DNA of 64,000 nucleotides from an uncultured Clostridia bacterium (GCA_934167755.1 CAKPLT010000001.1:161753-225752), one strand, 5' to 3'; counted from the first letter of the stretch, positions 36,105-50,400 are shown. Notes: a model not told the origin generated them from the sequence alone. Numbers and translations: made by a program.

Positions 36105-36377
36105 TTATTTCTTCGAAAGAGCTTCTAATAGTAACGATACAGCTAATGCAAAACCTTCAATAAAGGCCTCTTCAGATTCAATATCAGATAATTCATTCAT
36201 ACAATCTAATACATTATCAATTAGAGAAAAAGTTTCTTTATCAACCAAATGTGTCAGTTCTTCTTGAAGTAATGTACATTTTGATAGTGTTTTAGAATAT
36301 TTGGAATTTTCAAGTATTGGTTTCTCAATACAAGTGTAATCTCCATTGTATAGAGATTTAATTGTTTTATTGTTCAT
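36105..36377 (-). CDS. Small hypothetical protein (90 aa), divergent from hsdR
   Basis: ORF with a GGAGGTG RBS and no motif. Confidence 0.4.
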   Translation of the reverse strand: MNNKTIKSLYNGDYTCIEKPILENSKYSKTLSKCTLLQEELTHLVDKETFSLIDNVLDCMNELSDIESEEAFIEGFALAVSLLLEALSKK

Positions 36378-36560: not shown

Positions 36561-39314
36561 ATGTCTAAAGAATATGAAAGCGAGGCAATGCTTGAAGAAA
36601 AATTAATAAAACACTTAGAATTATTAGGTTATACTAGGATTAATCTAAAAAATCTAGATGATGTAAAAGAAAATTTTAGAAAACAAGTAAACAAGCATAA
36701 TATAGATGAATTAAAAGGAAAAGAACTATCAGATAGAGAATTTGATAGACTATATACAATGATTACTGGAAAAGGTGTTTATGCCAGTAGCAAAATTTTA
36801 AGAGAAAAACAATGTTTAGAAAGAGATAATGGAGAAAAAATATATATAGAATTATTTAATACCAGACAATGGTGTAAAAACATATACCAAGTTTCCAACC
36901 AAATAACCAGTATTACAGGAGAAAGAGAAACAAGATATGATGTAACACTTTTTATTAACGGATTACCACTAATTCAAATAGAATTAAAAGCACGTGGAAA
37001 AACATTAAAAGAAGCAGTAAATCAAATTGAAAGATATAGAAGGACTTCATATAAAGAATTATATAAATTTATTCAGATTTATGTTGTAAGTAATGGAGTA
37101 AATACAAAATACTTTGCAAATACAGATGGAGAAATAAACTTTGGATATACATTCTTTTGGACAGATGAAGAAAACAACAGAATTAGTAATCTAAGTGAAT
37201 TTTCAATGTATTTCTTAGAAAAATGTTTTGTATCTAAAATGATTGCTAGATATATGGTTATTAATGAAACAGACAAACAATTAATGGTAATGAGACCATA
37301 TCAAGTATATGCAGTAGAAGCACTAGTAAATCAGGCTAAAGAAACTAGTAATAATGGATATATATGGCATACTACAGGTTCAGGAAAAACATTAACATCC
37401 TTCAAAGCAAGTCAAATTTTAGCAAATGAACCAGATATTAAACAAGTCTTTTTCTTAGTAGATAGAAAAGATTTAGATACGCAGACATTCGATGAATTCA
37501 ATAAATTTGAGCCAGGTTCAGTAGACTTTACAAATAGTACATATAAATTAGTTAAAAATATACAAGATTCAACAAAGCCATTAATCATAACTACTATTCA
37601 AAAAATGGCTAATGCTATAAATAGTCCAAGATATTCAGAATTAATGGAAAAATACAGAGATGAAAAGGTTGTGTTTATTATAGATGAATGTCATAGAAGC
37701 CAATTTGGTGATATGCATAAAGCTATAAAAATGCATTTTAATAGAGCTCAATATTTTGGATTTACAGGTACACCAAGATTTCCGGAAAATAAAAGTCAAG
37801 ATGGGAGAACAACAGCAGATATATTTGAAAAATGTTTACACAAATATTTATTAAAAGATGCAATAAATGATGGAAATGTATTAGGATTTTCAGTTGATTA
37901 TTATAAAACAATAGATGCTAATTTAGATAATATAGATTATGTTGAAGTTGAAGGTATAAACACTGAAGAAGCTTATATGGCTGATGAAAGAATAAACAAC
38001 ATTACTGAAGGAATACTTACAATGCATCCATTAAAAACTAATGATATGACATATACTGCTATATTTGCAACTGCTAGTATACCACAATTAGTAAAATATT
38101 ATGATTGTTTTAAAACTAAAAAAACAGATTTGAAAATAGCAGCAATATTTACATATGGACCAAATGAAGATTATGAAGGAAAAGATGAACTTTCATGTCA
38201 AAGTTTAGAAAGAATTATAAATGATTACAATAAAATGTTTGATACCAACTATTCAGTAAATGCATTCGATGGATATTTTAAAGATGTTTCTAAAAGAGTA
38301 AAGAATGCAGAAATAGATATTTTAATTGTAGTAAATATGTTTTTAACTGGATTTGATAGCAAAAAATTAAATACATTGTATGTGGATAAAGCTTTAAAAT
38401 ATCATGATTTAATACAAGCTTTTTCAAGAACAAATAGAGTAGAAAAAGCAACAAAAACGCAAGGAAATATAGTAAGTTTTAGAACAACGAAAAAAGCTGT
38501 AGATAATGCTATAAGGATTTTTTCTGATACAAGTGATCCAGATGAAGTTTTATTAAAACCATATGAATATTATAAAGAAAAATTTATTGAAATAGCAAAA
38601 AAATTAAAAGAAACTGCTCCGACAGTAGAATTTGTCGATGCAATACAATCAGAAGAAGAAAAGAAAAAATTTATTGTTATATTTAGAGAGTTAACTAAAA
38701 TATTAATAAAACTTAGAATATTTAGAGAATTTAAATTTACAGAAGAAGAAGTTTATATTTCACATCAGGAATATTTAGATTATAAGAGTAAGTATTTAGA
38801 TTTAGCTACAGGTAAAGAATCACAAAATAAGGTTAGTATATTAAATGATATTGATTTTGAATTAGAATTAATGTACACAGATAAAATAAATGTAGACTAT
38901 ATTTTAAATTTAATGAGATCAATCGATTTAACTGATAAAGAGCAGACAGATAAAGATATTAAGGACATTTTAAATAAATTGGAAAATGCAGATAATAAGG
39001 ACTTAAGGCTAAAATCTGATTTGATTAGAGAATTCTTAAATAAAATTATTCCAACTCTTAATGAAAATGATTCAGTTGAAGAAAATTATTATAACTTTAT
39101 GGATGAACGCCGACACAAAGAAATTGAAGATATTGCCAAGAAATATGATATTGATATAAATCTATTAAATGATATCATAGGGGAATATGAATATTCTGGA
39201 ATCTTAGATACAGGTAAAATAAAAGAAAAAATAGATAAGCCTTTGATAGAAAAAGTTAATATAACAAAGTCAATTAAAGAATTTATAGTAAATTTAATAA
39301 ATAGATTCAAATAG
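36561..39314 (+). CDS. hsdR: Type I restriction enzyme R subunit
   Basis: N-terminal PD-(D/E)xK nuclease (RYDVTLFINGLPLIQIELK); helicase motifs HTTGSGKT, IIDECHRSQ, FTGTP. Confidence 0.9.
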   Translation: MSKEYESEAMLEEKLIKHLELLGYTRINLKNLDDVKENFRKQVNKHNIDELKGKELSDREFDRLYTMITGKGVYASSKILREKQCLERDNGEKIYIELFNTRQWCKNIYQVSNQITSITGERETRYDVTLFINGLPLIQIELKARGKTLKEAVNQIERYRRTSYKELYKFIQIYVVSNGVNTKYFANTDGEINFGYTFFWTDEENNRISNLSEFSMYFLEKCFVSKMIARYMVINETDKQLMVMRPYQVYAVEALVNQAKETSNNGYIWHTTGSGKTLTSFKASQILANEPDIKQVFFLVDRKDLDTQTFDEFNKFEPGSVDFTNSTYKLVKNIQDSTKPLIITTIQKMANAINSPRYSELMEKYRDEKVVFIIDECHRSQFGDMHKAIKMHFNRAQYFGFTGTPRFPENKSQDGRTTADIFEKCLHKYLLKDAINDGNVLGFSVDYYKTIDANLDNIDYVEVEGINTEEAYMADERINNITEGILTMHPLKTNDMTYTAIFATASIPQLVKYYDCFKTKKTDLKIAAIFTYGPNEDYEGKDELSCQSLERIINDYNKMFDTNYSVNAFDGYFKDVSKRVKNAEIDILIVVNMFLTGFDSKKLNTLYVDKALKYHDLIQAFSRTNRVEKATKTQGNIVSFRTTKKAVDNAIRIFSDTSDPDEVLLKPYEYYKEKFIEIAKKLKETAPTVEFVDAIQSEEEKKKFIVIFRELTKILIKLRIFREFKFTEEEVYISHQEYLDYKSKYLDLATGKESQNKVSILNDIDFELELMYTDKINVDYILNLMRSIDLTDKEQTDKDIKDILNKLENADNKDLRLKSDLIREFLNKIIPTLNENDSVEENYYNFMDERRHKEIEDIAKKYDIDINLLNDIIGEYEYSGILDTGKIKEKIDKPLIEKVNITKSIKEFIVNLINRFK

Positions 39315-39326
39315 AAGGAGAAAAAA

Positions 39327-40901
39327 ATGAATGTAGCAGAAAAACAAAATAAGCAACAATCAGAATTACACTCTAAATTATGGAGTATGGCAAATGATTT
39401 AAGAGGAACAATGGATGCTTCTGAATTTAAAAATTATATATTAGGATTAATATTTTATAGATTTTTATCAGAAAGATTAGTAAGTTACATAGAAGAAAAA
39501 CTTTTAAATAAAGATAAACTAACATATGAACAAGCATGGAAAAAAGAAGAATATAGGGAAGCAATAATTGAAGATCTAACAAAAGATAGTGATGTAGGAT
39601 ATGTTATTGAGCCAGAATATTTATTTTCTAATTTGATAAAATTAGTAGAAACAGGTGATTTTGATATATCAATATTACATAAAGCAATTAATAAAGTTTC
39701 AGAATCAACACTTGGAAATGCTAGTCAACATGATTTTGAAAATTTGTTTGAAGATATGGACTTAAGTTCTTCAAAATTAGGTAGAGGTGAAAAAGAAAGA
39801 AGTAAGTTAATAGGAACAATTATGCAAAAGATAAATGATATAGATTTTGCATTTGAAGATACAGAAATTGATGTTTTAGGAGATGCATATGAATATCTAA
39901 TAGGACAATTTGCAGCAAGTGCAGGTAAAAAAGCAGGAGAATACTATACACCACAACAAGTTTCAAACATACTTGCTAAAATAGTAACAATGGATATTAA
40001 AGACTTAAAGAATGTATATGATCCAACTTGTGGTTCTGGTTCATTATTGTTAAGAGTAGCAAGACAAAAAGATGTAAAAGTAAGTGCGTTTTATGGACAA
40101 GAAAAGGTTAGTACGACATACAACTTGGCTAGAATGAATATGTTACTTCATAGAGTTCCTTTTAATAGATTTGACATATATAATGGAGATACTTTAGAAG
40201 ATCCTTGTGAAGAACATATGAAAATGAGATTTCAAGCGATAGTTGCAAATCCACCATACTCTGCTCAATGGTCAGCAGACCAAAAATTTTTAAATGATGA
40301 GAGATTCAGCAATTATGGTAGATTGGCACCAAAATCAAAAGCAGATTATGCATTTATTCAACATATGATTTATCTATTAGATGATAATGGAACAATAGCA
40401 GTAGTATTACCACATGGTGTATTATTTAGAGGAGCAAGTGAAGGGACAATAAGAAAATATTTAATAAAAGATAAAAATTATTTGGATGCAGTAATAGGAT
40501 TACCAGCTAATATATTCTACGGAACTTCTATTCCTACTTGTATATTAGTATTTAAAAAGTGCAGAACAAGTGATAATGTATTATTTATTGATGCCTCAAA
40601 GGACTTTGAACCTGGAAAAAATCAGAATAGATTAAGAGATGAAGATGTAGACAAAATTATAAATACATATAAAAATAGAAAAGAAATAGAAAAATATTGT
40701 CACTTAGCTACTATGGATGAAATAAAAGAAAATGATTACAATTTAAATATACCACGCTATGTAGATACATTTGAAGAGGAAGAAGAAATAGATTTAGATG
40801 CTGTTCAAGTAGAATTAGAAAAAATAGATGAAGAAGACAAAAAAGTAACTGAAGAACTTAATAAGTATTTAAGAGAGTTGGGATTAAAAGAATTAAAATA
40901 G
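39327..40901 (+). CDS. hsdM: Type I restriction-modification methyltransferase M subunit
   Basis: LGDAYEYLIGQFA...GEYYTP..., YDPTCGSGSLLL (motif I), NPPYS (motif IV). Confidence 0.95.
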   Translation: MNVAEKQNKQQSELHSKLWSMANDLRGTMDASEFKNYILGLIFYRFLSERLVSYIEEKLLNKDKLTYEQAWKKEEYREAIIEDLTKDSDVGYVIEPEYLFSNLIKLVETGDFDISILHKAINKVSESTLGNASQHDFENLFEDMDLSSSKLGRGEKERSKLIGTIMQKINDIDFAFEDTEIDVLGDAYEYLIGQFAASAGKKAGEYYTPQQVSNILAKIVTMDIKDLKNVYDPTCGSGSLLLRVARQKDVKVSAFYGQEKVSTTYNLARMNMLLHRVPFNRFDIYNGDTLEDPCEEHMKMRFQAIVANPPYSAQWSADQKFLNDERFSNYGRLAPKSKADYAFIQHMIYLLDDNGTIAVVLPHGVLFRGASEGTIRKYLIKDKNYLDAVIGLPANIFYGTSIPTCILVFKKCRTSDNVLFIDASKDFEPGKNQNRLRDEDVDKIINTYKNRKEIEKYCHLATMDEIKENDYNLNIPRYVDTFEEEEEIDLDAVQVELEKIDEEDKKVTEELNKYLRELGLKELK

Positions 40902-40905
40902 AAAA

Positions 40906-40935
40906 AGGATTACATTTTGAAGTGTAATCCTTTTT
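40906..40935. terminator. Bidirectional terminator hairpin between convergent hsdM and hsdS
   Basis: aggattaca/tgtaatcct stem with T-runs on both strands. Confidence 0.65.
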
Positions 40936-41479
40936 AGATAAACATTTGCTGTAGTAGAGATTTTTTTAAAATATTTAAGTTATTTAAAGTATTTTTTTGC
41001 AAATTTATTTTTCTATCCAAATTTGACAAAATTTTTGCAATTTTTCTTTGATTCTCTAAACATGGAAAAACATCAGTATGTTTTAAAAAATCTTCTACAT
41101 TTACAGACATTCTTTCATAAACAGTTCCTTGTTCATATTTTCTAACTTTATTAATAAAATCAATTCTAGTAAAATAATATTTACAAAAAGATACATCCAT
41201 GATATTAGGATTAATTTCTAAAGTAACATATATTGGGGAAAAAATAGCACTTCCATATTCGTTAATACAAATAACACCAAATTTTAAATTGGCAGGATTA
41301 TAACATAAGTCATTAAGAAGAGTAATTTTATATTCTTTATTATTGGACATAACTAGAAAATCTCTATTGTATCTATCGGATTTATCCAAAATCCCATCTT
41401 TTGATAAAGTTACATGAGGATATTCTAATCCTTTTTCAGAATAGATCTTTCTTTCTTTCAAAAATTTACTAATTTGCAT
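40934..41479 (-). CDS. hsdS: HsdS distal half (TRD2 + C-terminal conserved helix). Out of frame with the upstream TRD1 ORF because of the T8 tract
   Basis: Ends LNILKKSLLQQMFI. The frame stays open upstream of the ATG to 41560 and reads ...KKTGVCQKLFQSIKDD..., the HsdS central conserved region. Confidence 0.75.
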   Translation of the reverse strand: MQISKFLKERKIYSEKGLEYPHVTLSKDGILDKSDRYNRDFLVMSNNKEYKITLLNDLCYNPANLKFGVICINEYGSAIFSPIYVTLEINPNIMDVSFCKYYFTRIDFINKVRKYEQGTVYERMSVNVEDFLKHTDVFPCLENQRKIAKILSNLDRKINLQKNTLNNLNILKKSLLQQMFI

Positions 41480-41495
41480 TTTAAATGTAGTTTTA

Positions 41496-42119
41496 TCATC
41501 TTTTATAGATTGAAATAATTTTTGACATACCCCTGTTTTTTTTATATATCTTAAGGGCTTCTATTTTTCTCTGTTGTAGTTCTATTTTTTTGCTTAAAAA
41601 TTCTAATAATTTAGATACTTTTTCTTGTTCTTCAATTGTGGGCAAATCAATATTTATATTTTTTATTTTTTCACCATATAAATGAACAATAGAATCTCCT
41701 TGAGCATATCTGGCAATAACAATCCTTTTTTTGTTAGATAATAAATAGCTTAAATATTTTCCATTTTGAAATTTTGGTCTCAATACATTTAAATCTCCAC
41801 CAAGAATTACATGATCTTGCAATATACAAGTTGATGTAGAAATATCTAATGCAGTTTCGCCACTACATGGAATTAAAACGTCGTTTATTTTGCTATGAAA
41901 AAGATTTTTATCACTTCTATCAGTATAACTTATAACTTTATCTGTTATTTCATCATACTGTGTATACAACTCTCCATATAGAATACAAGGAAACTTTCCG
42001 TTTTCTTTAATATCAGATTTAGATAATGTGTTTCCTTTATAGAAATCTACTATATCATTTAATTTATATGTATTATATTCATCTTTAAATTCTTTAAATC
42101 TTAGCTTTGGTACTAGCAA
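41496..42119 (-). CDS. hsdS: HsdS proximal half (TRD1 + start of central conserved region), terminating 13 codons after the T8 tract
   Basis: MLVPKLRFKEFKDEY... typical HsdS N-terminus; ...LPTIEEQEKVSKLLEFLSKKIELQQRKIEALKIYKK then frameshifted NRGMSKIISIYKR*. Confidence 0.8.
   Translation of the reverse strand: MLVPKLRFKEFKDEYNTYKLNDIVDFYKGNTLSKSDIKENGKFPCILYGELYTQYDEITDKVISYTDRSDKNLFHSKINDVLIPCSGETALDISTSTCILQDHVILGGDLNVLRPKFQNGKYLSYLLSNKKRIVIARYAQGDSIVHLYGEKIKNINIDLPTIEEQEKVSKLLEFLSKKIELQQRKIEALKIYKKNRGMSKIISIYKR
41536..41543 (-). repeat. Homopolymeric T8 (A8 on the coding strand) tract inside hsdS; removing 1 nt fuses TRD1 and TRD2 in frame
   Basis: Seen in the sequence. With 7 A the reading is ...KIYKKTGVCQKLFQSIKDD... 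in a single frame. Confidence 0.8.
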
Positions 42120-42196
42120 TTTTTCACCTTCATTCTGTCCTTTAGTTTAACCTTAAAGGTCAAGAAAAGTATATCATAAAAAATTTAAAATTGGAA

Positions 42197-43192
42197 TTAT
42201 TTTAGAATTTTTTCTTGAAAATTTTTACAAATTAAATTTATACATTTCTTTTTTTGAGACATTTGAGGATGCACATATAAATTTAAAGTAATATTTACAG
42301 TAGCATGTCCTAATAATTCACTAACCGTCTTATAATCTACACCTAATTTGATACAATTAGTTGCAAAAGTGTGCCTAAGGCCATGAAAATTAATTTTATC
42401 TATTTGGGCTTTTTTTGAAATTCTTTCAAAATATCTCCTATATGTTCTTGGCTCTATCCATTTGTTGTTACAAGATAATATATAATCATTTGAATTGGTT
42501 TTATATTTCTTTAATTCGTATGCAAATTCTTTATTAAGTGGTATTTCTCTTTCGGCATTGTGAGTTTTTGGATTTGTTATTATAACTTTTGAAGCATTAA
42601 TGTGTGTATCTTTAATATATACCCTTTGAAGGGTTTTATTTATATGTAAAATATTGTTTTTAAAATCAATATCCTTCCATTGTAATGCACATAGTTCGCC
42701 TATTCTAATTCCAGAATATAAAGTCAACAAAATTCCTAAACTTTTAATAGACTGATTCTTTAAAATGTAATTTGTTAATTTATCTTGATTTTGCTTTGAG
42801 AGAGTATATATCTTATCTTTTATATTAGTTTTCGGATAAATAAAATCAAGGCTTACACTTTCAATTAATCCTTCCTTAGTTGCAGCTTTTAGACTGCTTT
42901 TTATTATAGCAATTATATCCCTAATTGTTTTGCTTGATAGTCCTCCTGAATTATCCAATCTACCATTTTTATATTTTTCTAATAAAAATTTTTGAATTAT
43001 CTTATTATTTAATTCATTAAGATAATATTTTCCTAAATCTGGTACTATATGGTTAGAAATAATATTAGAATAATTTGCATATGTGGATTCTTTAATATAA
43101 TCTTTTTTATATGATAGCCAATCCCAAATCCAATATTCATATAATATTTTGTTTTTTGCTTTAAATAGCATCTTTTTCACCTCCATATACAT
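42197..43192 (-). CDS. Tyrosine site-specific recombinase (phage integrase family) directly upstream of hsdS
   Basis: C-terminal catalytic region ...INFHGLRHTFATNCIKLG...LLGHATVNITLNLYVH (R...H-x-x-R...Y). Confidence 0.85.
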   Translation of the reverse strand: MYMEVKKMLFKAKNKILYEYWIWDWLSYKKDYIKESTYANYSNIISNHIVPDLGKYYLNELNNKIIQKFLLEKYKNGRLDNSGGLSSKTIRDIIAIIKSSLKAATKEGLIESVSLDFIYPKTNIKDKIYTLSKQNQDKLTNYILKNQSIKSLGILLTLYSGIRIGELCALQWKDIDFKNNILHINKTLQRVYIKDTHINASKVIITNPKTHNAEREIPLNKEFAYELKKYKTNSNDYILSCNNKWIEPRTYRRYFERISKKAQIDKINFHGLRHTFATNCIKLGVDYKTVSELLGHATVNITLNLYVHPQMSQKKKCINLICKNFQEKILK

Positions 43193-43248
43193 TATACAAC
43201 GAGTGTCTTTTTAGTATATTAAGGTTAAAAAAAGGACTAATTCAAAAA

Positions 43249-43818
43249 ATGTATCAGAAAAATTATAATAATAAAATAAAAATGGAAAAGATTCTTATAC
43301 AAAAATCTATAAGAAATACTAATGATGAAAATTATAATGTATATAGCGTTAGCAACAAAGATGGTTTTATATTACAAACAGAACAGTTTAAAGATAGAAT
43401 CGTAGCAAGTGAAGATACTAAAAATTATAAAGTGGTAGAAAAAGATGATTTTGCATATAACCCGGCACGTATAAATGTGGGATCTATTGCAAGAATGAAA
43501 AAAGATACAAAGGGCATAATAAGTCCTATGTATATATGTTTTAAATGTAATGAAGAAATACTACCAGAATATTTAGAATATTTTTTTGAATCATCTAAAT
43601 TTACATATGAAATGAATAAAAGGCTTGAAGGAAGCGTAAGAATGTGTTTATCATACGAATCAATGTTAAATATACCGATAGAATTACCAAATAAAAATGA
43701 ACAAGAAGAAATATCAAAAATTCTTAACAATTTAAGTGATAAAATAAAATTAGAAGAAGAAAAGTGGATTAAATTAAAGAAATTAAAGAGAGGATTATTA
43801 CAGAAAATGTTTATATAG
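43249..43818 (+). CDS. hsdS: Half-size HsdS (single TRD + C-terminal conserved helix) in opposite orientation to the main hsdS
   Basis: YNVYSVSNKDGF...FAYNP...GSIA and a C-terminus LKKLKRGLLQKMFI nearly identical to the hsdS C-terminus. Confidence 0.72.
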   Translation: MYQKNYNNKIKMEKILIQKSIRNTNDENYNVYSVSNKDGFILQTEQFKDRIVASEDTKNYKVVEKDDFAYNPARINVGSIARMKKDTKGIISPMYICFKCNEEILPEYLEYFFESSKFTYEMNKRLEGSVRMCLSYESMLNIPIELPNKNEQEEISKILNNLSDKIKLEEEKWIKLKKLKRGLLQKMFI

Positions 43819-43891: not shown

Positions 43892-44254
43892 ATGTATAGT
43901 GAAATAGTAAAAAAATATTTTGAAAATCCAACAAATTTAGGGACAATTGAAAATGCTGATGCAATAGGAATAATAGAAAATGAAATTTGCAGTGATATAA
44001 TAAAAAAATATATAAAAGCAGGTGAACAAAAAAATATCATAGAAGATGCAAAATTTGAAGCTAAAGGATGTCCTCCAGTTATAGCATCATGTTGTGTGGT
44101 AACAGAAATGATTAAAAAAATGGAAATAGAAAAAGCTAAAACCTTAACTGCAAATGAAATAATTAATAAATTAAATGGTTTGCCAAAAGAAAAAGAACAT
44201 TGTGCAGAGTTAGTTATAAAAACATTAAGAAAGGCAATAGAAAATATAAATTGA
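43892..44254 (+). CDS. NifU/IscU-like Fe-S cluster scaffold domain protein
   Basis: Cys ligands in ENEICSD, KGCPPVIAS, HCAELV at IscU-like spacing. Confidence 0.55.
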   Translation: MYSEIVKKYFENPTNLGTIENADAIGIIENEICSDIIKKYIKAGEQKNIIEDAKFEAKGCPPVIASCCVVTEMIKKMEIEKAKTLTANEIINKLNGLPKEKEHCAELVIKTLRKAIENIN

Positions 44255-44275: not shown

Positions 44276-45460
44276 CTACTTCATAGAAACATTACTAACC
44301 AACATATTCTCCAACAACTCTGCACTAGCCCTATCAGTAGACTCCAAATCATGAACATAAAACTTCAAAGTAGTATCAGTACTAGCATGACCTAATTTAT
44401 GAGAAACAGTCTTAACATCAACATTACCAGAAATAAGCAAAGTAGCAAAAGTATGTCTCAAATCATGAAAACGAATATGAGGAAAACCATTCCTAGTTAA
44501 GAAAGAACTAAACCATTTAGGACCAGTTGCAGGATTCATAATTCTACCATCAGCAGTAGTAAAAACATTTTTAGCACTTTTCCAAGATTTACCCAGAGCA
44601 AGTCTCATCTTACTTTGCTCACATCTCCATTGTTTAAGCAAATCAAAGCAAATACTAGGTACTGCTATTGTACGAGTACTTAAATCCGTTTTAGGACTCT
44701 TCTCAGAAGTAGGTTGACCACTTAAATAATAGGCACTTCTTTTAATACTTATTTTATGATTTTTAAAATCAATATCATCCCAATGCAAACCAACTAATTC
44801 ACCACGTCTAAAACCAGTTAATATAGCAAGAATAACAAAACATTTATATTTTATAGGAGCCTTTTTAAGTAGGACATTTATTAATCTTTTAGATGTTTCT
44901 TCATCATAACATGTCATTTTAGTACGTTTAAATTTAGGTTGAACAACTTTAGTACATGGATTATATGAAACCATGTCCCACCTGAGAGCATTACTGAAAA
45001 TGCTAGATAATATTTCATGAGCGCGATGTACACTAGCTGGAGATAAAGTTTTATAATTACCATTTTTGTCTTTTCTATTAGTTGGTTTAGTTAGCAAAAA
45101 ATCATACAGATTATCCAAATCCAAAAGTTTTATTTTATCAAGTCGCTTATTACCTAAATATGGCAAAATATGTTTATTTAATTTTTCGTTATAACTTTGG
45201 TAAGTTGTAGGCGAAAGATTAGGTTTTACATATGTTTCTAACCATTGCTTACTAAAATCATTTAATGTCACTTTTTTCGCAGAATATGTGCAACCGCCTT
45301 CAATTGAAGTGATAAATTTTGCAAGTTCTTTTTCGGCTTCTCTTTTAGATGAACAAGTAACAGTTTTATTAAAATATTTTCTTTTACCATTTGAATCGAA
45401 ACCATTACTAACACGAAGTCTATATTTTTCATTTCCCATATATAGAATGTTTCCTGCCAA
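44276..45460 (-). CDS. int: Tyrosine integrase (element 1)
   Basis: N-terminal MAGNILYMGNEKYRLRV...; C-terminal RFHDLRHTFATLLISGN...LGHASTDTTLKFYVH. Confidence 0.9.
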   Translation of the reverse strand: MAGNILYMGNEKYRLRVSNGFDSNGKRKYFNKTVTCSSKREAEKELAKFITSIEGGCTYSAKKVTLNDFSKQWLETYVKPNLSPTTYQSYNEKLNKHILPYLGNKRLDKIKLLDLDNLYDFLLTKPTNRKDKNGNYKTLSPASVHRAHEILSSIFSNALRWDMVSYNPCTKVVQPKFKRTKMTCYDEETSKRLINVLLKKAPIKYKCFVILAILTGFRRGELVGLHWDDIDFKNHKISIKRSAYYLSGQPTSEKSPKTDLSTRTIAVPSICFDLLKQWRCEQSKMRLALGKSWKSAKNVFTTADGRIMNPATGPKWFSSFLTRNGFPHIRFHDLRHTFATLLISGNVDVKTVSHKLGHASTDTTLKFYVHDLESTDRASAELLENMLVSNVSMK

Positions 45461-45472
45461 ATATATTACCTC

Positions 45473-46189
45473 CTACTTATTAATCCAATCTTGATTGTCT
45501 TTTAGCCATTTTGAAAGTTCATCAAATTTGATTTTATTATCTTTACAAAGTTTATACATTTTCTTAGCTTCAGAAGCCCAATTAGAAAATAGTTTATCTA
45601 CATTAGCAATATTTTTATTTCTTTGTTTCTTGGCATTTTGAGTTTTATATGCATTTCTATATAACTTTGTTATTTCATCAGATTGTACAGAGAGTTCATA
45701 ACCGATATCTCTACAAGTCTTACCATTTCTAAAAACACGAGTGCAATATATTTCATTACTCTTAGTTGTAGGAACAAAATATTTGCCACAATTTTTACAT
45801 TTATTAAATTGAATATTTAAAGCAGCGGCCCTATATAAAATGAATAAAATAAAATCATGATAAGATTTAAAAGTATAAATTTCTAATGGCATTTGTAAAT
45901 CATTTTCTATTTTAATTCCACTAAAAATTCTACATTCGAATGATCCCATTTTTGACAATTCATTACCTAAAGCTTTATATAATGAATCTGCATGATTATT
46001 TAACAAAAATTCAATTAAATGTTTTTCAGTTGCATTAGTTTCTTCAAATAATTCAATTACAAAATTACCTAAATTAAATTCTTTAGTAACAGCCTTTCTT
46101 TCAATATCTATAAGATAACATGTATCATTATTTATATATAGATAAATTTGCTTAGAGTCTTGTTTCATAACTATCTCCTTTTTAGACAT
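45473..46189 (-). CDS. Zn-ribbon protein (CKNCGKYF...C...C), co-transcribed upstream of int; paralogue of 54946-55941
   Basis: Shares the C.NCGKYF.P...YC..VF...KTC...G.EL block with the protein next to the second integrase. Confidence 0.5.
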   Translation of the reverse strand: MSKKEIVMKQDSKQIYLYINNDTCYLIDIERKAVTKEFNLGNFVIELFEETNATEKHLIEFLLNNHADSLYKALGNELSKMGSFECRIFSGIKIENDLQMPLEIYTFKSYHDFILFILYRAAALNIQFNKCKNCGKYFVPTTKSNEIYCTRVFRNGKTCRDIGYELSVQSDEITKLYRNAYKTQNAKKQRNKNIANVDKLFSNWASEAKKMYKLCKDNKIKFDELSKWLKDNQDWINK

Positions 46190-46307
46190 TTTAAAATAAA
46201 TTTCAAAAATGTCTTAACTTAAATTTGAATCTATTGTAACATATAGACATATTAAAAGTCAAGAATAATCTGTCAATTGCTTCAAATAATTCCAAGGAGG
46301 TGAGATT

Positions 46308-46502
46308 ATGCAAGAAAAAACAGATATTCCAGAGTTATTAACTGTTAAAGAAATTCAAGAAAAAATGAGAATTTCAAAAGCAGGAGTATATAACTTAATA
46401 AATTCTGGACAAATTCCATTATTAAAAATAGGGAATAGAAAATTAATACCTAAAAAAGAATTTTTAATTTGGTTAAAGAAACAGGAGGTGAATACAAAAT
46501 AA
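46308..46502 (+). CDS. xis: Excisionase/HTH DNA-binding protein (Xis-like)
   Basis: LLTVKEIQEKMRISKAGVYNLINSGQIP HTH; divergent from the int module. Confidence 0.6.
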   Translation: MQEKTDIPELLTVKEIQEKMRISKAGVYNLINSGQIPLLKIGNRKLIPKKEFLIWLKKQEVNTK

Positions 46503-46503
46503 A

Positions 46504-46722
46504 ATGGATGAAGAAGAATTCTTAACAAAACAACAGGTCATAGAAAAATATAAACCAATGTTTACAGAGTGGTCTCTTTCAAAATTAATTAGAGAAAGAA
46601 AAATAAAATTTGTAAGAATTGGTAGAAGAATATTTTTCACTAAAAAATCAGTAGATGATTTTATAAAATCTCAAGAAGAAAATAGTATTTTAAATGAAAG
46701 AAGGAATTTTCACATTGTATAA
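46504..46722 (+). CDS. Second small HTH (AlpA/Xis-like) protein
   Basis: FLTKQQVIEKYK...WSLSKLIRERKIKFVRIGRRIFF. Confidence 0.5.
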   Translation: MDEEEFLTKQQVIEKYKPMFTEWSLSKLIRERKIKFVRIGRRIFFTKKSVDDFIKSQEENSILNERRNFHIV

Positions 46723-46863
46723 AATAAAAAATTGTCCTTTCAATTGGTACTTGAAAGAACAATATAATTGAATATAAAGGCTAACCTATATAAACAATCT
46801 CTAAATATATTATATACGATTAGCCTAAAATATTCAATGATTTAACGAAAAGAGGTAAGAAAA

Positions 46864-49077
46864 TTGAATATTTATGAGCAAATAAAAAATAGTGTAACAA
46901 ACAAAGAGGTAGCAATTCATTATTTAGGACAACCAGTTAGAAAATCTGCAAACTATTTATTATATTCCTCACCTTTTAGAAAAGATAAAAATCCATCTTT
47001 TGCAGTTAATGATAAAGGTTTTATAGACTTTGGAGATAAAGAACATTGTGGAGATATGATTCAATTTGTAAAACAATTAAAAGGGTGTCAATATCCACAT
47101 GAAGCAGCAAAAATAATAGTAGAAGACTTGGGACTAAATATAACAATTCCAGAGAATATAAAAAATGTAAAAGAGAAGAAAAGTAAGAAAAAGTTTAGTG
47201 AATTATGTTTTGAAAAAGGAAATAAATCTAATAATATAATTTGCATGTTTGACTCACAAAAATATAATTCAAAACCAGCAAAGGAGCAAATAGGATATAT
47301 AAAAAATAGAATTTCAAAACTAAGAATGCAGGAATATAGATTAGAAGAAATAGAAAATAATATAATAAATGGCATGACAATAATACCAAGTGGAATAAAA
47401 GGAAATGCACAAGAAAATTGGAAAAAACAACAAATATTTTTAGTTGATTTTGATAACACATATAAAGGGGAAAAGTTATATAGTGATAACCCAAAACACA
47501 TAACAATTGAAAAAATTTTGAATTATTGCAAAAGTATAAACTTTGAATCGACATTTATATACACAACTTTTAGCAATTCTGAAAAACAAACAAAATTTAG
47601 ATTAGCATATGTATTTGAAGAACCAATTACGGAATATTTACTAGCATCTCAGATACCACAAAAATTATTAGAAATTTTTGAAGACTATTATCCAGATACA
47701 TCAAAACAGAATTTATCAGATATGTTTTTTGGAGGGCAAGAAATTCTATACACTTCTGACAACTATTATAAAATTTCAAAAAAGGAATTAGAAATTGAAC
47801 AAATAGAATACCAAGACATAAGTGAACCAGAAAAGATGTCTCATAATGTTATTGCTAATCAACTATTAGAGGAAAATGAAATCCGAGTGTATGAAAATAC
47901 ACTATACATATATGAAAATGGAGTATATAAAAAGAATGAAAAGAGCATCCATAGAAAAATTATAGAAATATATCCTAAATCAACAATTAGAATGCAAAAA
48001 GAAGTTATATCATATTTATTAACAATTGCTCCAGAGGCAGAACTACAATATGACAATTTTATTAATTTTAAAAACGGATTATTTGATTTAAGAACAAATC
48101 AGATAATACAGCATTCACCCCAATATTTTACAGTGAATCAAATAAATATAAATTTAAATTTAAATATTGATCCAATAAAAATTAGTGCAGTAGATAATTT
48201 TTTAGATAGAATAACTTGTGGCAATAACGAAAGAAAGAATGCAATACTGGAGATGATAGGATATTCTATGACTAGTAGTGTAAAGATGCAAAAAGCATTT
48301 GTATTATATGGTAAAACCGCAGGAAATGGAAAGTCTACTCTCTTAGAAATTATTGAAAGATTAATTGGAAGAGAAAATATAAGTCATGTAACATTGCAAG
48401 ATTTTGTTAGTAATAGATTTAGTGTTTCTGAAATAAAGGGAAAATTGGTTAATATAGTATCTGAAATGACAAAAGAATTTTTAAAAGATAGTAGTGTTTT
48501 CAAGCAAATTGTTACTGGAGATATTATAACTGTTGAAGAAAAGTTTAAAGATAGATATACAATAAAGCCATATGCTAAATACATTTTTACAGCAAATGAA
48601 CTGCCAAAAGTCGCAGATACTAGTAATGGATATTTCAGAAGACTTTTTATAATTCCATTTGAGGCTGTATTTACAGAAACAGAAAAAAGTAATTTCAACT
48701 TTAATGAATTGGTAACGCAACAAGCATTAGAATATTTGGCAGCAATATCATTAAAAGAATATATAAAAGCAGTAAGAAAAAATAAATTCTCTAATGTAGA
48801 GGAAAGTCAAAACATTATAGAATCATATAAAATGGATAGTAATACAGTAATAGCGTATTTATATGATAAAGATAGAATGAGAAGTTTATTAAGAAGCGGA
48901 AGAGTTAAAAAAAGAAATGAAGTATTTGCAGATTATATCAATTATTGCAAAGACTCTGGTTATATACACAAAGGCAGAAATAAGTTTTATGAAGAAGTTG
49001 AATCAACAGGGGTAGTACAAAAAGGTGTATATAATGGATATGATACATATATTTTTGATAAATCACTAATAAAATAG
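46864..49077 (+). CDS. Phage/plasmid primase-helicase (N-terminal CHC2 zinc finger primase + P4/D5-type SF3 NTPase), TTG start
   Basis: CHC2 region ...SPFRKDKNPSFAV...HCGD...; Walker A VLYGKTAGNGKST; Walker B/arginine-finger region. Confidence 0.78.
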   Translation: MNIYEQIKNSVTNKEVAIHYLGQPVRKSANYLLYSSPFRKDKNPSFAVNDKGFIDFGDKEHCGDMIQFVKQLKGCQYPHEAAKIIVEDLGLNITIPENIKNVKEKKSKKKFSELCFEKGNKSNNIICMFDSQKYNSKPAKEQIGYIKNRISKLRMQEYRLEEIENNIINGMTIIPSGIKGNAQENWKKQQIFLVDFDNTYKGEKLYSDNPKHITIEKILNYCKSINFESTFIYTTFSNSEKQTKFRLAYVFEEPITEYLLASQIPQKLLEIFEDYYPDTSKQNLSDMFFGGQEILYTSDNYYKISKKELEIEQIEYQDISEPEKMSHNVIANQLLEENEIRVYENTLYIYENGVYKKNEKSIHRKIIEIYPKSTIRMQKEVISYLLTIAPEAELQYDNFINFKNGLFDLRTNQIIQHSPQYFTVNQININLNLNIDPIKISAVDNFLDRITCGNNERKNAILEMIGYSMTSSVKMQKAFVLYGKTAGNGKSTLLEIIERLIGRENISHVTLQDFVSNRFSVSEIKGKLVNIVSEMTKEFLKDSSVFKQIVTGDIITVEEKFKDRYTIKPYAKYIFTANELPKVADTSNGYFRRLFIIPFEAVFTETEKSNFNFNELVTQQALEYLAAISLKEYIKAVRKNKFSNVEESQNIIESYKMDSNTVIAYLYDKDRMRSLLRSGRVKKRNEVFADYINYCKDSGYIHKGRNKFYEEVESTGVVQKGVYNGYDTYIFDKSLIK

Positions 49078-49341
49078 AAAAGCCCACTTACTGTAAAATA
49101 TAACCATATAGGTAGCTATACGACATTTTAGTGGTATTCTTATAATAAAAAATATATAATAATTATTATTGTATATATTTTTATGATTATAAAAATTGAA
49201 AAGAAAATATTAAAAGAGAAAAAACACCACTAAAAAAATTACACATGTTTTTAAAATGTGCGTAATTTTTTAAATTTTTTACACATATTTATTGCATATG
49301 TGTAAATTTTATATTATAATACACATATGGAGGTATGAAAA

Positions 49342-50400
49342 ATGAAACATGAATTAAAAATGTTGCCACCAGAAGATAATTTCAGAACAGTAAGAATATT
49401 AGAACAATTAGCAAGAACTAATAGAGCACTTGCAGAATTAAAAGGATATGCAAGAACAATACCAAATCAACATATATTAATAAATGCTATAACAATAAAT
49501 GAAGCAAAAGACAGTAGTGAAATAGAAAATATAGTTACTACACATGATGAAATATATAAAGCAATGACTCAAAGTAATTATAAGAATGAAAGTGCTAAAG
49601 AAGTAGTAGATTACAGAAGCGCTATATGGAGAGGCTATAGTTTAGTAAAAGAAAAAGAAATGATAACTACTAATATTTTGGTAGAGATTCAATCAATAAT
49701 AGAACACAACAATGCAGGAATCAGAAAAATTCCAGGAACAGTTTTAAAGAATTCCAAAACTGGAGAAATTGTATATACTCCACCAGAAACAGAAAAAGAA
49801 GTTAGAGAATATTTGAAGAATTTAGAAGAATATATAAATACTGATGATATGATAGATCCTCTAATAAAACTTGCGATTATCCATTATCAATTTGAATCAA
49901 TTCATCCATTTTATGATGGCAACGGAAGAACAGGAAGAATATTAAATATTTTATATTTAGTATTAAAGGATTTATTAGATAGTCCAATTCTATATTTAAG
50001 TAGGTACATTAACGACAATAAACAAACATATTACAAATTATTTAAAGAAGTAAGAGAAACAAATAATTTTGAAGAGTGGATTATATATATATTAATTGGA
50101 ATTGAAGAAACAGCAGAAGAAACAATGAAATTAATTAAAGACATTCAAGGTGAAATGGAAAAATATAGTGAAGAATTGAAAGAAAAATTGCCTAAGATAT
50201 ATAGTAAGGAACTATTAGAAGGACTATTTTTCGAAGTTTATACAAAAATAAATTATATTGAAAATATATGTGGAGTTACAAGAAAAACGGCAATGTCATA
50301 TTTAAGTCAATTAGAAGAAGCGGGATTCCTTACATCAGAAAAAATAGGAAGAGACAGAATATATAAAAATGACAGATTAATTAATCTATTAAAAAAATAA
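49342..50400 (+). CDS. Fic family protein (AMPylator/Doc family)
   Basis: Fic motif HPFYDGNGRTGR. Confidence 0.9.
   Translation: MKHELKMLPPEDNFRTVRILEQLARTNRALAELKGYARTIPNQHILINAITINEAKDSSEIENIVTTHDEIYKAMTQSNYKNESAKEVVDYRSAIWRGYSLVKEKEMITTNILVEIQSIIEHNNAGIRKIPGTVLKNSKTGEIVYTPPETEKEVREYLKNLEEYINTDDMIDPLIKLAIIHYQFESIHPFYDGNGRTGRILNILYLVLKDLLDSPILYLSRYINDNKQTYYKLFKEVRETNNFEEWIIYILIGIEETAEETMKLIKDIQGEMEKYSEELKEKLPKIYSKELLEGLFFEVYTKINYIENICGVTRKTAMSYLSQLEEAGFLTSEKIGRDRIYKNDRLINLLKK

Follow-up and report, generated by a model that had tools for sequence, protein, structure and literature searches.

An hsd (Type I restriction-modification) locus of an uncultured Clostridia bacterium: a probable, recently phase-locked relic of a four-way inverting specificity switch

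The window analysed here is a stretch of 64,000 nucleotides (nt) from an uncultured Clostridia bacterium (GCA_934167755.1 CAKPLT010000001.1:161753-225752), with a GC content of about 26%. It carries a Type I restriction-modification (R-M) locus in which a tyrosine recombinase gene stands between two opposed pieces of hsdS, one on the minus strand at 40934-42119 beside hsdM (hereafter the near hsdS) and the other, a half-hsdS, on the plus strand at 43249-43818 (the far hsdS). An initial annotation had proposed that this is an inverting hsdS shufflon. The gene order that it gave, i.e. hsdR and hsdM on the plus strand, hsdS and the recombinase on the minus strand, and the half-hsdS on the plus strand, agrees with our coordinates and Pfam assignments. 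We compared the locus with intact relatives and with contigs of the same type as the window (window-type contigs L001-L010 and L109, from 11 distinct gut metagenome samples). The features of the locus are the following, where TRD stands for target recognition domain and ORF for open reading frame.

36561-39314, plus strand: hsdR, 917 aa, intact; Pfam HSDR_N, SWI2_SNF2, T1R_D3-like and EcoR124_C (EcoR124-type C-terminal domain)
39327-40901, plus strand: hsdM, 524 aa, intact; Pfam N6_Mtase (5.6e-114) and HsdM_N
40902-40935, no strand: hairpin with a 13-bp stem between the convergent hsdM and hsdS, from a terminator scan (AAAAAGGATTACA...TGTAATCCTTTTT)
40934-42119, minus strand: hsdS-homologous region, frameshifted, with two ORFs and Pfam Methylase_S in each
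41496-42119, minus strand: hsdS 5' fragment, an ORF of 207 aa with the first TRD (TRD1w) and most of the central helix; Pfam Methylase_S (4.5e-19)
40934-41479, minus strand: hsdS 3' fragment, an ORF of 181 aa with the second TRD (TRD2w) and the distal conserved helix; Pfam Methylase_S
41526-41557, minus strand: central recombination site of the near hsdS, damaged (CCCTTAAGATATATAAAAAAAACAGGGGTATG), with an A8 run at 41536-41543
42137-42156, minus strand: near 5' recombination site, one base short (TTAAGGTTAAACTAAAGGAC, against TTAAGGTTAAAACTAAAGGAC in relatives)
42168-42176, minus strand: extended -10-like element TGATATACT, an inferred promoter facing hsdS, located after the stop codon of the recombinase and before the near 5' site
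42197-43171, minus strand: tyrosine recombinase (hsdS invertase), 324 aa, intact; Pfam Phage_integrase and Phage_int_SAM_3
43219-43248, plus strand: hybrid scar site at a deletion junction, in which the left half of the far 5' site (TTAAGGTTAAAA) is joined to the right half of the far gene's central site (AAAGGACTAATTCAAAAA)
43249-43818, plus strand: half-hsdS, 189 aa, with a second TRD (TRD2') and the distal helix; Pfam Methylase_S

The hsdR and hsdM products are 98.9% and 99.0% identical in amino acid sequence to those of the sister locus L019. The near hsdS, previously described as a single gene at 40934-42119, is in fact split by a frameshift at the A8 run into the ORFs of 207 and 181 aa, and there is no intact full-length hsdS in the position beside hsdM, the frameshift lying in the central region. 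The peptide KKTGVCQKLF, cited before as part of one HsdS protein, sits in the second reading frame. The 207-aa ORF starts with a TTG preceded by GAAGGTG, and its N-terminus LLVPKLRFKEF is common to relatives; in L107 and L108, the second half of the full-length near hsdS is colinear with the 3' fragment, at 95–96% nt identity. We considered a sequencing error as the source of the frameshift and rejected it, as A8 is present in every independent window-type assembly read. For the recombinase, the extent 42197-43192 given earlier is real as an ORF, but the start codon with a Shine-Dalgarno sequence (GGAGGTG) is at 43171, which yields the protein of 324 aa. A look-up with the translation of the 331-aa ORF gave no match, whereas the 324-aa form gave matches.

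The original organisation of this family can be read from its intact relatives, which are metagenome-assembled genomes of uncultured gut Clostridia, Erysipelotrichaceae and Bacilli/'Tenericutes'. Their layout is hsdR-hsdM, a convergent full-length hsdS, the recombinase, and a second full-length hsdS placed head-to-head with the first; the hsdS genes flanking the recombinase encode proteins of 348–416 aa. This layout was seen in at least 17 loci of uncultured gut Clostridia and Bacilli, including loci with the identical 324-aa recombinase. In close relatives the recombinase is 86–88% identical, and the same layout is found down to 64% identity. The recombinase may point either way relative to hsdM, while the near hsdS converges on hsdM in all relatives, whatever their inversion state. 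This constancy refutes the earlier suggestion that the convergence of hsdS to hsdM in the window denotes a switched state. The window keeps the family layout and the convergence but does not hold two full-length hsdS genes, since the far gene amounts to a second TRD and the near gene is frameshifted. Two other forms of disruption were noted among the relatives: an ORF of 311 aa is inserted between the recombinase and the downstream hsdS in L024 (1761-2696), and an rve-family transposase lies just past the far hsdS in L104 (6365-7336).

Exact inverted repeats occur at two positions in 17 of the 17 intact loci examined. Those of the first position, the 5' site, are 14–82 nt long, lie 34–79 nt outside the ends of the recombinase ORF and upstream of both hsdS start codons, and have in the Clostridia group the core TTAAGGTTAAAACTWAAGG, which continues into a shared Shine-Dalgarno sequence and N-terminal codons. 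Those of the second, the central site, are 14–94 nt long and fall, in both hsdS genes, within the conserved central region, with a core around CCCTTAAGATATATAAAA in the Clostridia group. The two 5' arms are identical in every relative in which both are readable. Aligned by eye, the 5' core TTAAGGTTAAAACTAAAGGAC and the central core TTAAGATATATAAAAAAGGAC match at 15 of 21 positions with equal spacing, and one enzyme could thus plausibly use both. The C-terminal helices, put forward initially as the recombining repeats, do not have this role in the relatives, which recombine instead upstream of the start codons and in the central region. In the Bacilli/'Tenericutes' relatives L030-L038, a third inverted-repeat pair is present in the distal conserved helix (e.g. 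TAAAAAAAGGACTTATGCAAA), about 1140–1270 nt on either side of the recombinase, and the central and distal regions cross-match (TTATTTAAAAAAGGACT). These relatives may have more than two inversion site pairs.

Inversion at both positions is observed between closely related contigs. Contigs of lineage P0002, obtained from different samples and 98–100% identical, differ by inversion: the first TRDs are swapped between L011/L015 and L012-L014, and the recombinase cassette alone is flipped in L016-L018, with the 5' crossover inside a 19-nt core. Sister loci with an identical recombinase protein do occur in alternative inversion states, three in number (L107, L108/L110 and L104). The only difference between L107 and L108/L110 is a cassette flip, within TTAAGGTTAAAACTAAAGGACAGA, and L104 differs by an inversion at the central site, which crosses over within ATAGAAGCCCTTAAGATATATAAAA. 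Of the four possible states, three are thus represented in relatives from independent samples, at 99–100% identity, both among 8 contigs and among 4. The intact relatives are, by the published definition, inverting Type I loci, namely four-way switches whose repeats precede the first TRD and separate the two TRDs (PMC7394358; PMC7672463). In L110 (5630-5658, coverage about 3x), the contig stops 14 nt past the central core, on the continuation of the other hsdS gene, which hints that both inversion isoforms are present in that sample. Homologues of the recombinase number in the thousands, many of them alone on contigs of about 1.1 kb. In recombinase-only contigs of about 1.1–1.25 kb (L020, L033, L039) the assemblies break at the 5' repeats, and contig L020 (1,111 nt) ends exactly at the two repeats. 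Short contigs of this kind are a useful signature for finding active family members in short-read assemblies.

The recombinase of the window shows no sign of decay. At every column conserved in at least 97% of 120 homologues it has the conserved residue, its ratio of non-synonymous to synonymous substitution rates (dN/dS) is about 0.10, and the identical 324-aa protein is encoded in the intact, rearranging loci L104, L107, L108 and L110; identity to other family members is 64–92%. An enzyme that is constrained and intact means that locking of the locus is recent, or that the enzyme is still used. A scan with NCBIfam returned generic Xer/integrase models only, all below cut-off. One may ask whether this gene belongs to a neighbouring integrative element, its adjacency to hsdS being coincidental, as a separate integrase gene is found only 1.1 kb away:

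43892-44254, plus strand: nifU-like gene
44276-45460, minus strand: second integrase, with DUF6076, two HTH_17 genes, a D5-type primase and Fic

In addition, a search of a plasmid collection gave as best matches of the recombinase (36–40% identity) ordinary integrases located outside hsd loci, including one of Ruminococcus albus pRUMAL02. Against such an origin, every relative of at least 64% identity with readable flanks has this gene flanked by two inverted hsdS genes beside hsdM-hsdR, irrespective of the other neighbours and in unrelated genomic contexts. The crossovers, moreover, map to sites at the hsdS genes, which refutes this reading; we regard it as hardly credible. The recombinase is dedicated to the hsd locus, as first annotated.

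The inverted repeats of the relatives have no usable counterpart in the window. The published criterion for hsdS inverted repeats is at least 20 bp at 100% identity within 30 kb (PMC7394358), and the shortest repeats shown experimentally to support hsdS inversion are 14–15 bp (PMC7672463). For an inverting Type I R-M locus, the repeats of the window fall short of both lengths, the residual 5' site giving 11 nt. Comparison of hsdS with the half-hsdS gave no exact inverted repeat of at least 12 nt; the longest inverted matches are two off-register 11-mers, accompanied by several 10-mers, so that inverted repeats of 15 bp or more linking the hsdS copies, whose absence the initial annotation had listed among its refuting conditions, are not there. 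Across the 64 kb, the repeat partners of either hsdS gene are only scattered, distant, AT-rich 14–15-mers, none exceeding 15 nt, and neither further hsdS fragments nor further site copies were found. The likeness of the C-terminal peptides KRGLLQKMFI and KKSLLQQMFI is real, and the associated repeat, first put at about 80% over 23 bp, comes by eye to about 79% over 24 nt. Its exact core, however, is only 10 nt (AAATGTTTAT), and as evidence it is at chance level, as the same genes share off-register 11-mers and other 10-mers. A search for repeats over the whole region returned nothing beyond low-identity AT-rich matches; an indel between the arms kept the residual 5' site from being detected.

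What is left of the recombination sites was mapped against sister alleles with the same second TRDs (95–98% nt identity) and the same recombinase (97–99%). All three surviving recombination cores are hit in the window lineage, by the far deletion, by a gain of 4 nt in the near central site and by a loss of 1 nt in the near 5' site. In the last, the window has TTAAACT in place of the TTAAAACT of relatives. The spacing GGTT + 9 nt + GGAC is constant in the Clostridia-group relatives with a readable site, while the window remnants have 8 nt (near) and 7 nt. Both remnants are at homologous positions but their spacers differ, and the window thus has no matched 5' pair: inside the crossover region the residual cores are unequal, GGTT-A7-GGAC versus GGTT-AAACTAAA-GGAC. 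The sequence TTAAGGTTAAA occurs in exactly two copies in the 64 kb, inverted and flanking the recombinase. Neither is a matched central pair left, as one central motif carries the additional 4 nt and the far copy consists of the right half only, inside the scar.

The near central site reads TATAAAAAAAACAGGGG in the window and TATAAAACAGGGG in the in-frame sister alleles, and it is this gain of 4 nt that put hsdS out of frame. The central motif is present as a single copy within the window. The A8 run could be taken for a simple-sequence phase-variation switch like that of NgoAV, with A7 giving a full-length HsdS and A8 a truncated one of different, symmetric specificity. Deleting one A does bring the frame back (...YKKTGVCQKLF...), and the truncated and full-length HsdS of NgoAV differ in active specificity (PMC7394358). 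We nevertheless consider such a switch quite improbable. The tract has 8 residues in every window-type locus read, with no length polymorphism, and one sample (L007) has an extra nonsense change at 41431, inside the downstream 181-aa ORF. Since the sister alleles have A4, in frame, at this place, A8 is better explained as a lesion of four added nucleotides inside a recombination core than as a maintained repeat tract. In the same sample, L007, a cluster of 8 single-nucleotide polymorphisms (SNPs) relative to the window covers the hsdR/hsdM junction (39245-39373) and is maybe a small imported patch.

On the far side, the window from 46500 to 43228 is colinear with L019 2137-5412 at 95.9%, after which the alignment jumps to L019 5926. 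The first TRD, the central helix and most of the 5' region of the far gene are lost. The junction reads TTAAGGTTAAAA-AAAGGAC-TAATTCAAAAAATG, that is, the left half of a 5' site followed by the right half of a central site, and 3' of it the sequence matches the central regions of L107, L108 and L019 without a difference. The ATG of the half-hsdS corresponds to an internal Met of the ancestral central helix KKGLIQKM, and the gene shares 98% nt identity with the 3' half of the far hsdS in L107 (392 aa). Judged by these alignments, the half-hsdS is evidently the remnant of a formerly full-length far hsdS, reduced by a deletion that joined its own 5' and central sites. The lost segment lay between two sites of the same orientation that share TTAAG-N12-GGAC, and our hypothesis is that the recombinase made the deletion between these directly oriented sites. 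We put it no higher than that because the junction is 2 nt shorter than the in-register site-specific product; slippage in A-runs is the alternative. The scar junction, in either orientation, had no match in a JGI metagenome scan, which is uninformative as to flipped isoforms.

The window-type contigs read all align colinearly with the window, at 99.8–100% identity. All of them carry all three lesions, and the 4 intact-type contigs carry none. A flipped cassette would give a junction reading …CTTGACCTTTAAGGTTAAA…AAGGACTAATTCAAAAAATG; among the window-type contigs of the 11 samples no alternative arrangement was seen at the assembly level, and at that level the window locus itself provides no evidence of inversion. 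The lineage is nearly clonal across the hsd genes, and the comparison has for this reason no power to detect relaxed selection since locking. An apparent gap in the recombinase of L008 was rejected as a deletion, being a scaffold N-run.

The regulatory side of the locus was approached through the DNA between the recombinase and the 5' sites. A generic sigma-70 promoter scan (23 sites versus 28 expected) was uninformative because the DNA is AT-rich, and it was replaced by a conservation test of one motif over 20 loci. The motif, TGnTAwAhT, stands past the recombinase stop codon and ahead of the downstream 5' site in 16 of the 20 loci, and on the other side of the recombinase in 1 of 20. In the window, the promoter-like element at 42168-42176 faces the frameshifted hsdS. 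The conservation of this motif suggests that the recombinase cassette carries an outward hsdS promoter, in which case the orientation of the cassette would select the hsdS that is expressed. The hairpin at 40902-40935 is terminator-like in both directions, and because the near hsdS is convergent to hsdM behind it, expression of hsdS must come from the cassette side.

Taken together, we consider it likely that the window locus is a recently decayed, phase-locked relic of a four-way inverting Type I specificity switch. The name of inverting shufflon was right as to ancestry and kind but does not suit the window copy, which has no usable repeats and a single arrangement in 11 samples. In the intact family, the recombinase would act on two pairs of inverted sites: inversion at the 5' pair flips the recombinase cassette (about 1.1 kb) alone, and inversion at the central pair swaps the first TRDs. 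In the window lineage, the first TRD of the far hsdS has gone with a deletion that joined the 5' and central sites of this gene, while 4 nt were gained in the near central site and 1 nt was lost from the near 5' site. With no matched site pair left, the intact recombinase would have no substrate and the arrangement would be fixed. Tyrosine recombinases require identical overlap regions in partner sites, and the unequal remnants of the window should thus not recombine efficiently. As truncated HsdS is active in NgoAV (cited in PMC7394358), it is possible that the R-M system runs on a fixed specificity provided by half-size HsdS subunits.

Several points weigh against a locked locus. The enzyme, which is intact, is the same as in active loci, and an 11-nt exact inverted repeat (TTAAGGTTAAA) together with AAAGGAC brackets it. 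The constant orientation partly reflects shared recent ancestry, the colinear contigs are those read from a larger group that includes 6–10 more, listed as similar, and assemblies report the majority state only; given that the data are assemblies alone, rare cassette flipping in the window lineage could still take place. The switch might then be active in a reduced form, in which the cassette flips between the residual 5' sites (42137-42156 and 43219-43237) and moves its outward promoter between the frameshifted hsdS and the half-hsdS, as a two-state expression switch. The two inverted copies of TTAAGGTTAAA about an enzyme shared with rearranging loci would suit this, and so would the promoter-like element inside the cassette, the cassette-only flips known in relatives (L011 versus L016, L107 versus L108) and the experimental finding that repeats of 14–15 bp suffice in other hsdS systems (PMC7672463). 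The exact repeat, however, is just 11 nt, and the residual cores differ in sequence and length, whereas the arms agree in all relatives where they can be compared. Furthermore, all window-type assemblies read have one orientation, while the relatives display three states among as few as 8 and 4 contigs. We therefore find a reduced switch unlikely and retain the phase-locked relic as our explanation.

More tentatively, the family as a whole might represent a mirror-image design of the four-way hsdS switch, in which the head-to-head hsdS genes stay fixed, a flipping cassette of about 1.1 kb carries the only hsdS promoter, and one recombinase acts on two types of TTAAG-N12-GGAC site. We see this as possible, though rather doubtful. 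If it were true, inversion at the 5' site would be a promoter switch and inversion at the central site a shuffling of first TRDs. As the two site types are directly oriented within a gene, this enzyme could also cut out the first TRD; the scar of the window would then be such an excision, and the design would bring with it a way of destroying itself and of giving rise to half-size hsdS genes. No description of a mirror-image layout was found in a limited full-text literature search, and the suggested combination of fixed genes with a moving promoter/recombinase cassette is unlike the characterised systems met in that search.

The closest characterised four-way systems are Efa4125I/EfaH25I (efiA) of Enterococcus faecalis and SSU1271-1274 of Streptococcus suis. 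As in these, the intact relatives have two full-length hsdS genes flanking a tyrosine recombinase, with inverted-repeat pairs before the first TRD and between the TRDs that allow four TRD combinations (PMC7394358, PMC7672463). The E. faecalis locus differs in its order, hsdR-hsdM-hsdSA-efiA-hsdSB, with the first hsdS reported to be co-transcribed with its upstream neighbours, and in that its central inversion swaps second TRDs, whereas the family of the window swaps first TRDs. In this family, by comparison, the hsdS genes are head-to-head, the near one is convergent to hsdM behind a hairpin, and the 5' inversion moves the cassette only. The window copy is distinguished from both the E. faecalis and the S. 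suis systems by the loss of its repeats and the absence of an intact hsdS. The Streptococcus pneumoniae system SpnD39III (ivr/cod, PsrA/CreX) likewise combines several hsdS genes, inverted repeats, a tyrosine recombinase at the locus and TRD shuffling (PMC7394358), but in it a single expressed hsdS shares a transcript with hsdR and hsdM, the partial copies are silent and the states number six, and, unlike it, the window copy does not have the required repeats. In the recombinase-associated locus SpnIV/tvr of S. pneumoniae, where TvrR acts by excision and reintegration between direct repeats, hsdS segments can be lost (PMC7672463); in the window, too, a TRD was lost between two sites of the same orientation. 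The window shows no evidence of reintegration. Finally, as in NgoAV, a central frameshift linked to a homopolymer leaves a single-TRD HsdS that is putatively capable of forming a homodimer (PMC7394358). In contrast to NgoAV-type switching, the window-type loci read show no variation in tract length.

As the defining repeats are lacking, the window locus is not to be classed with the inverting loci; it is better seen as an ordinary relic, locked recently, of a system whose kind is already known. The gene pattern of two hsdS plus an integrase is thus insufficient to call a phase-variable methyltransferase: the window copy passes this test of gene content and would nevertheless be a false-positive phasevarion. 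A locked allele found beside unlocked sister alleles with an identical recombinase, in one gut species complex, also offers a comparison for the worth of switching. The same comparison confines the cores at which this uncharacterised family of invertases recombines to about 19–25 nt.

The second integrase belongs to a separate integrative element beside nifU, at 44276-50400 and beyond in the window, with a 394-aa integrase, DUF6076, two HTH_17 genes, a D5/DUF5906 primase-helicase and Fic. In sister contigs, Big_2 and FtsK-like genes follow this set. A patch of its integrase gene (44492-44750) has 25 linked SNPs in L002 and L004 and looks like a recombined segment. At the other end of the locus, a DUF6809 gene on the minus strand (36105-36377) lies just upstream of hsdR, a position that is kept in L019, whose locus has the same context.

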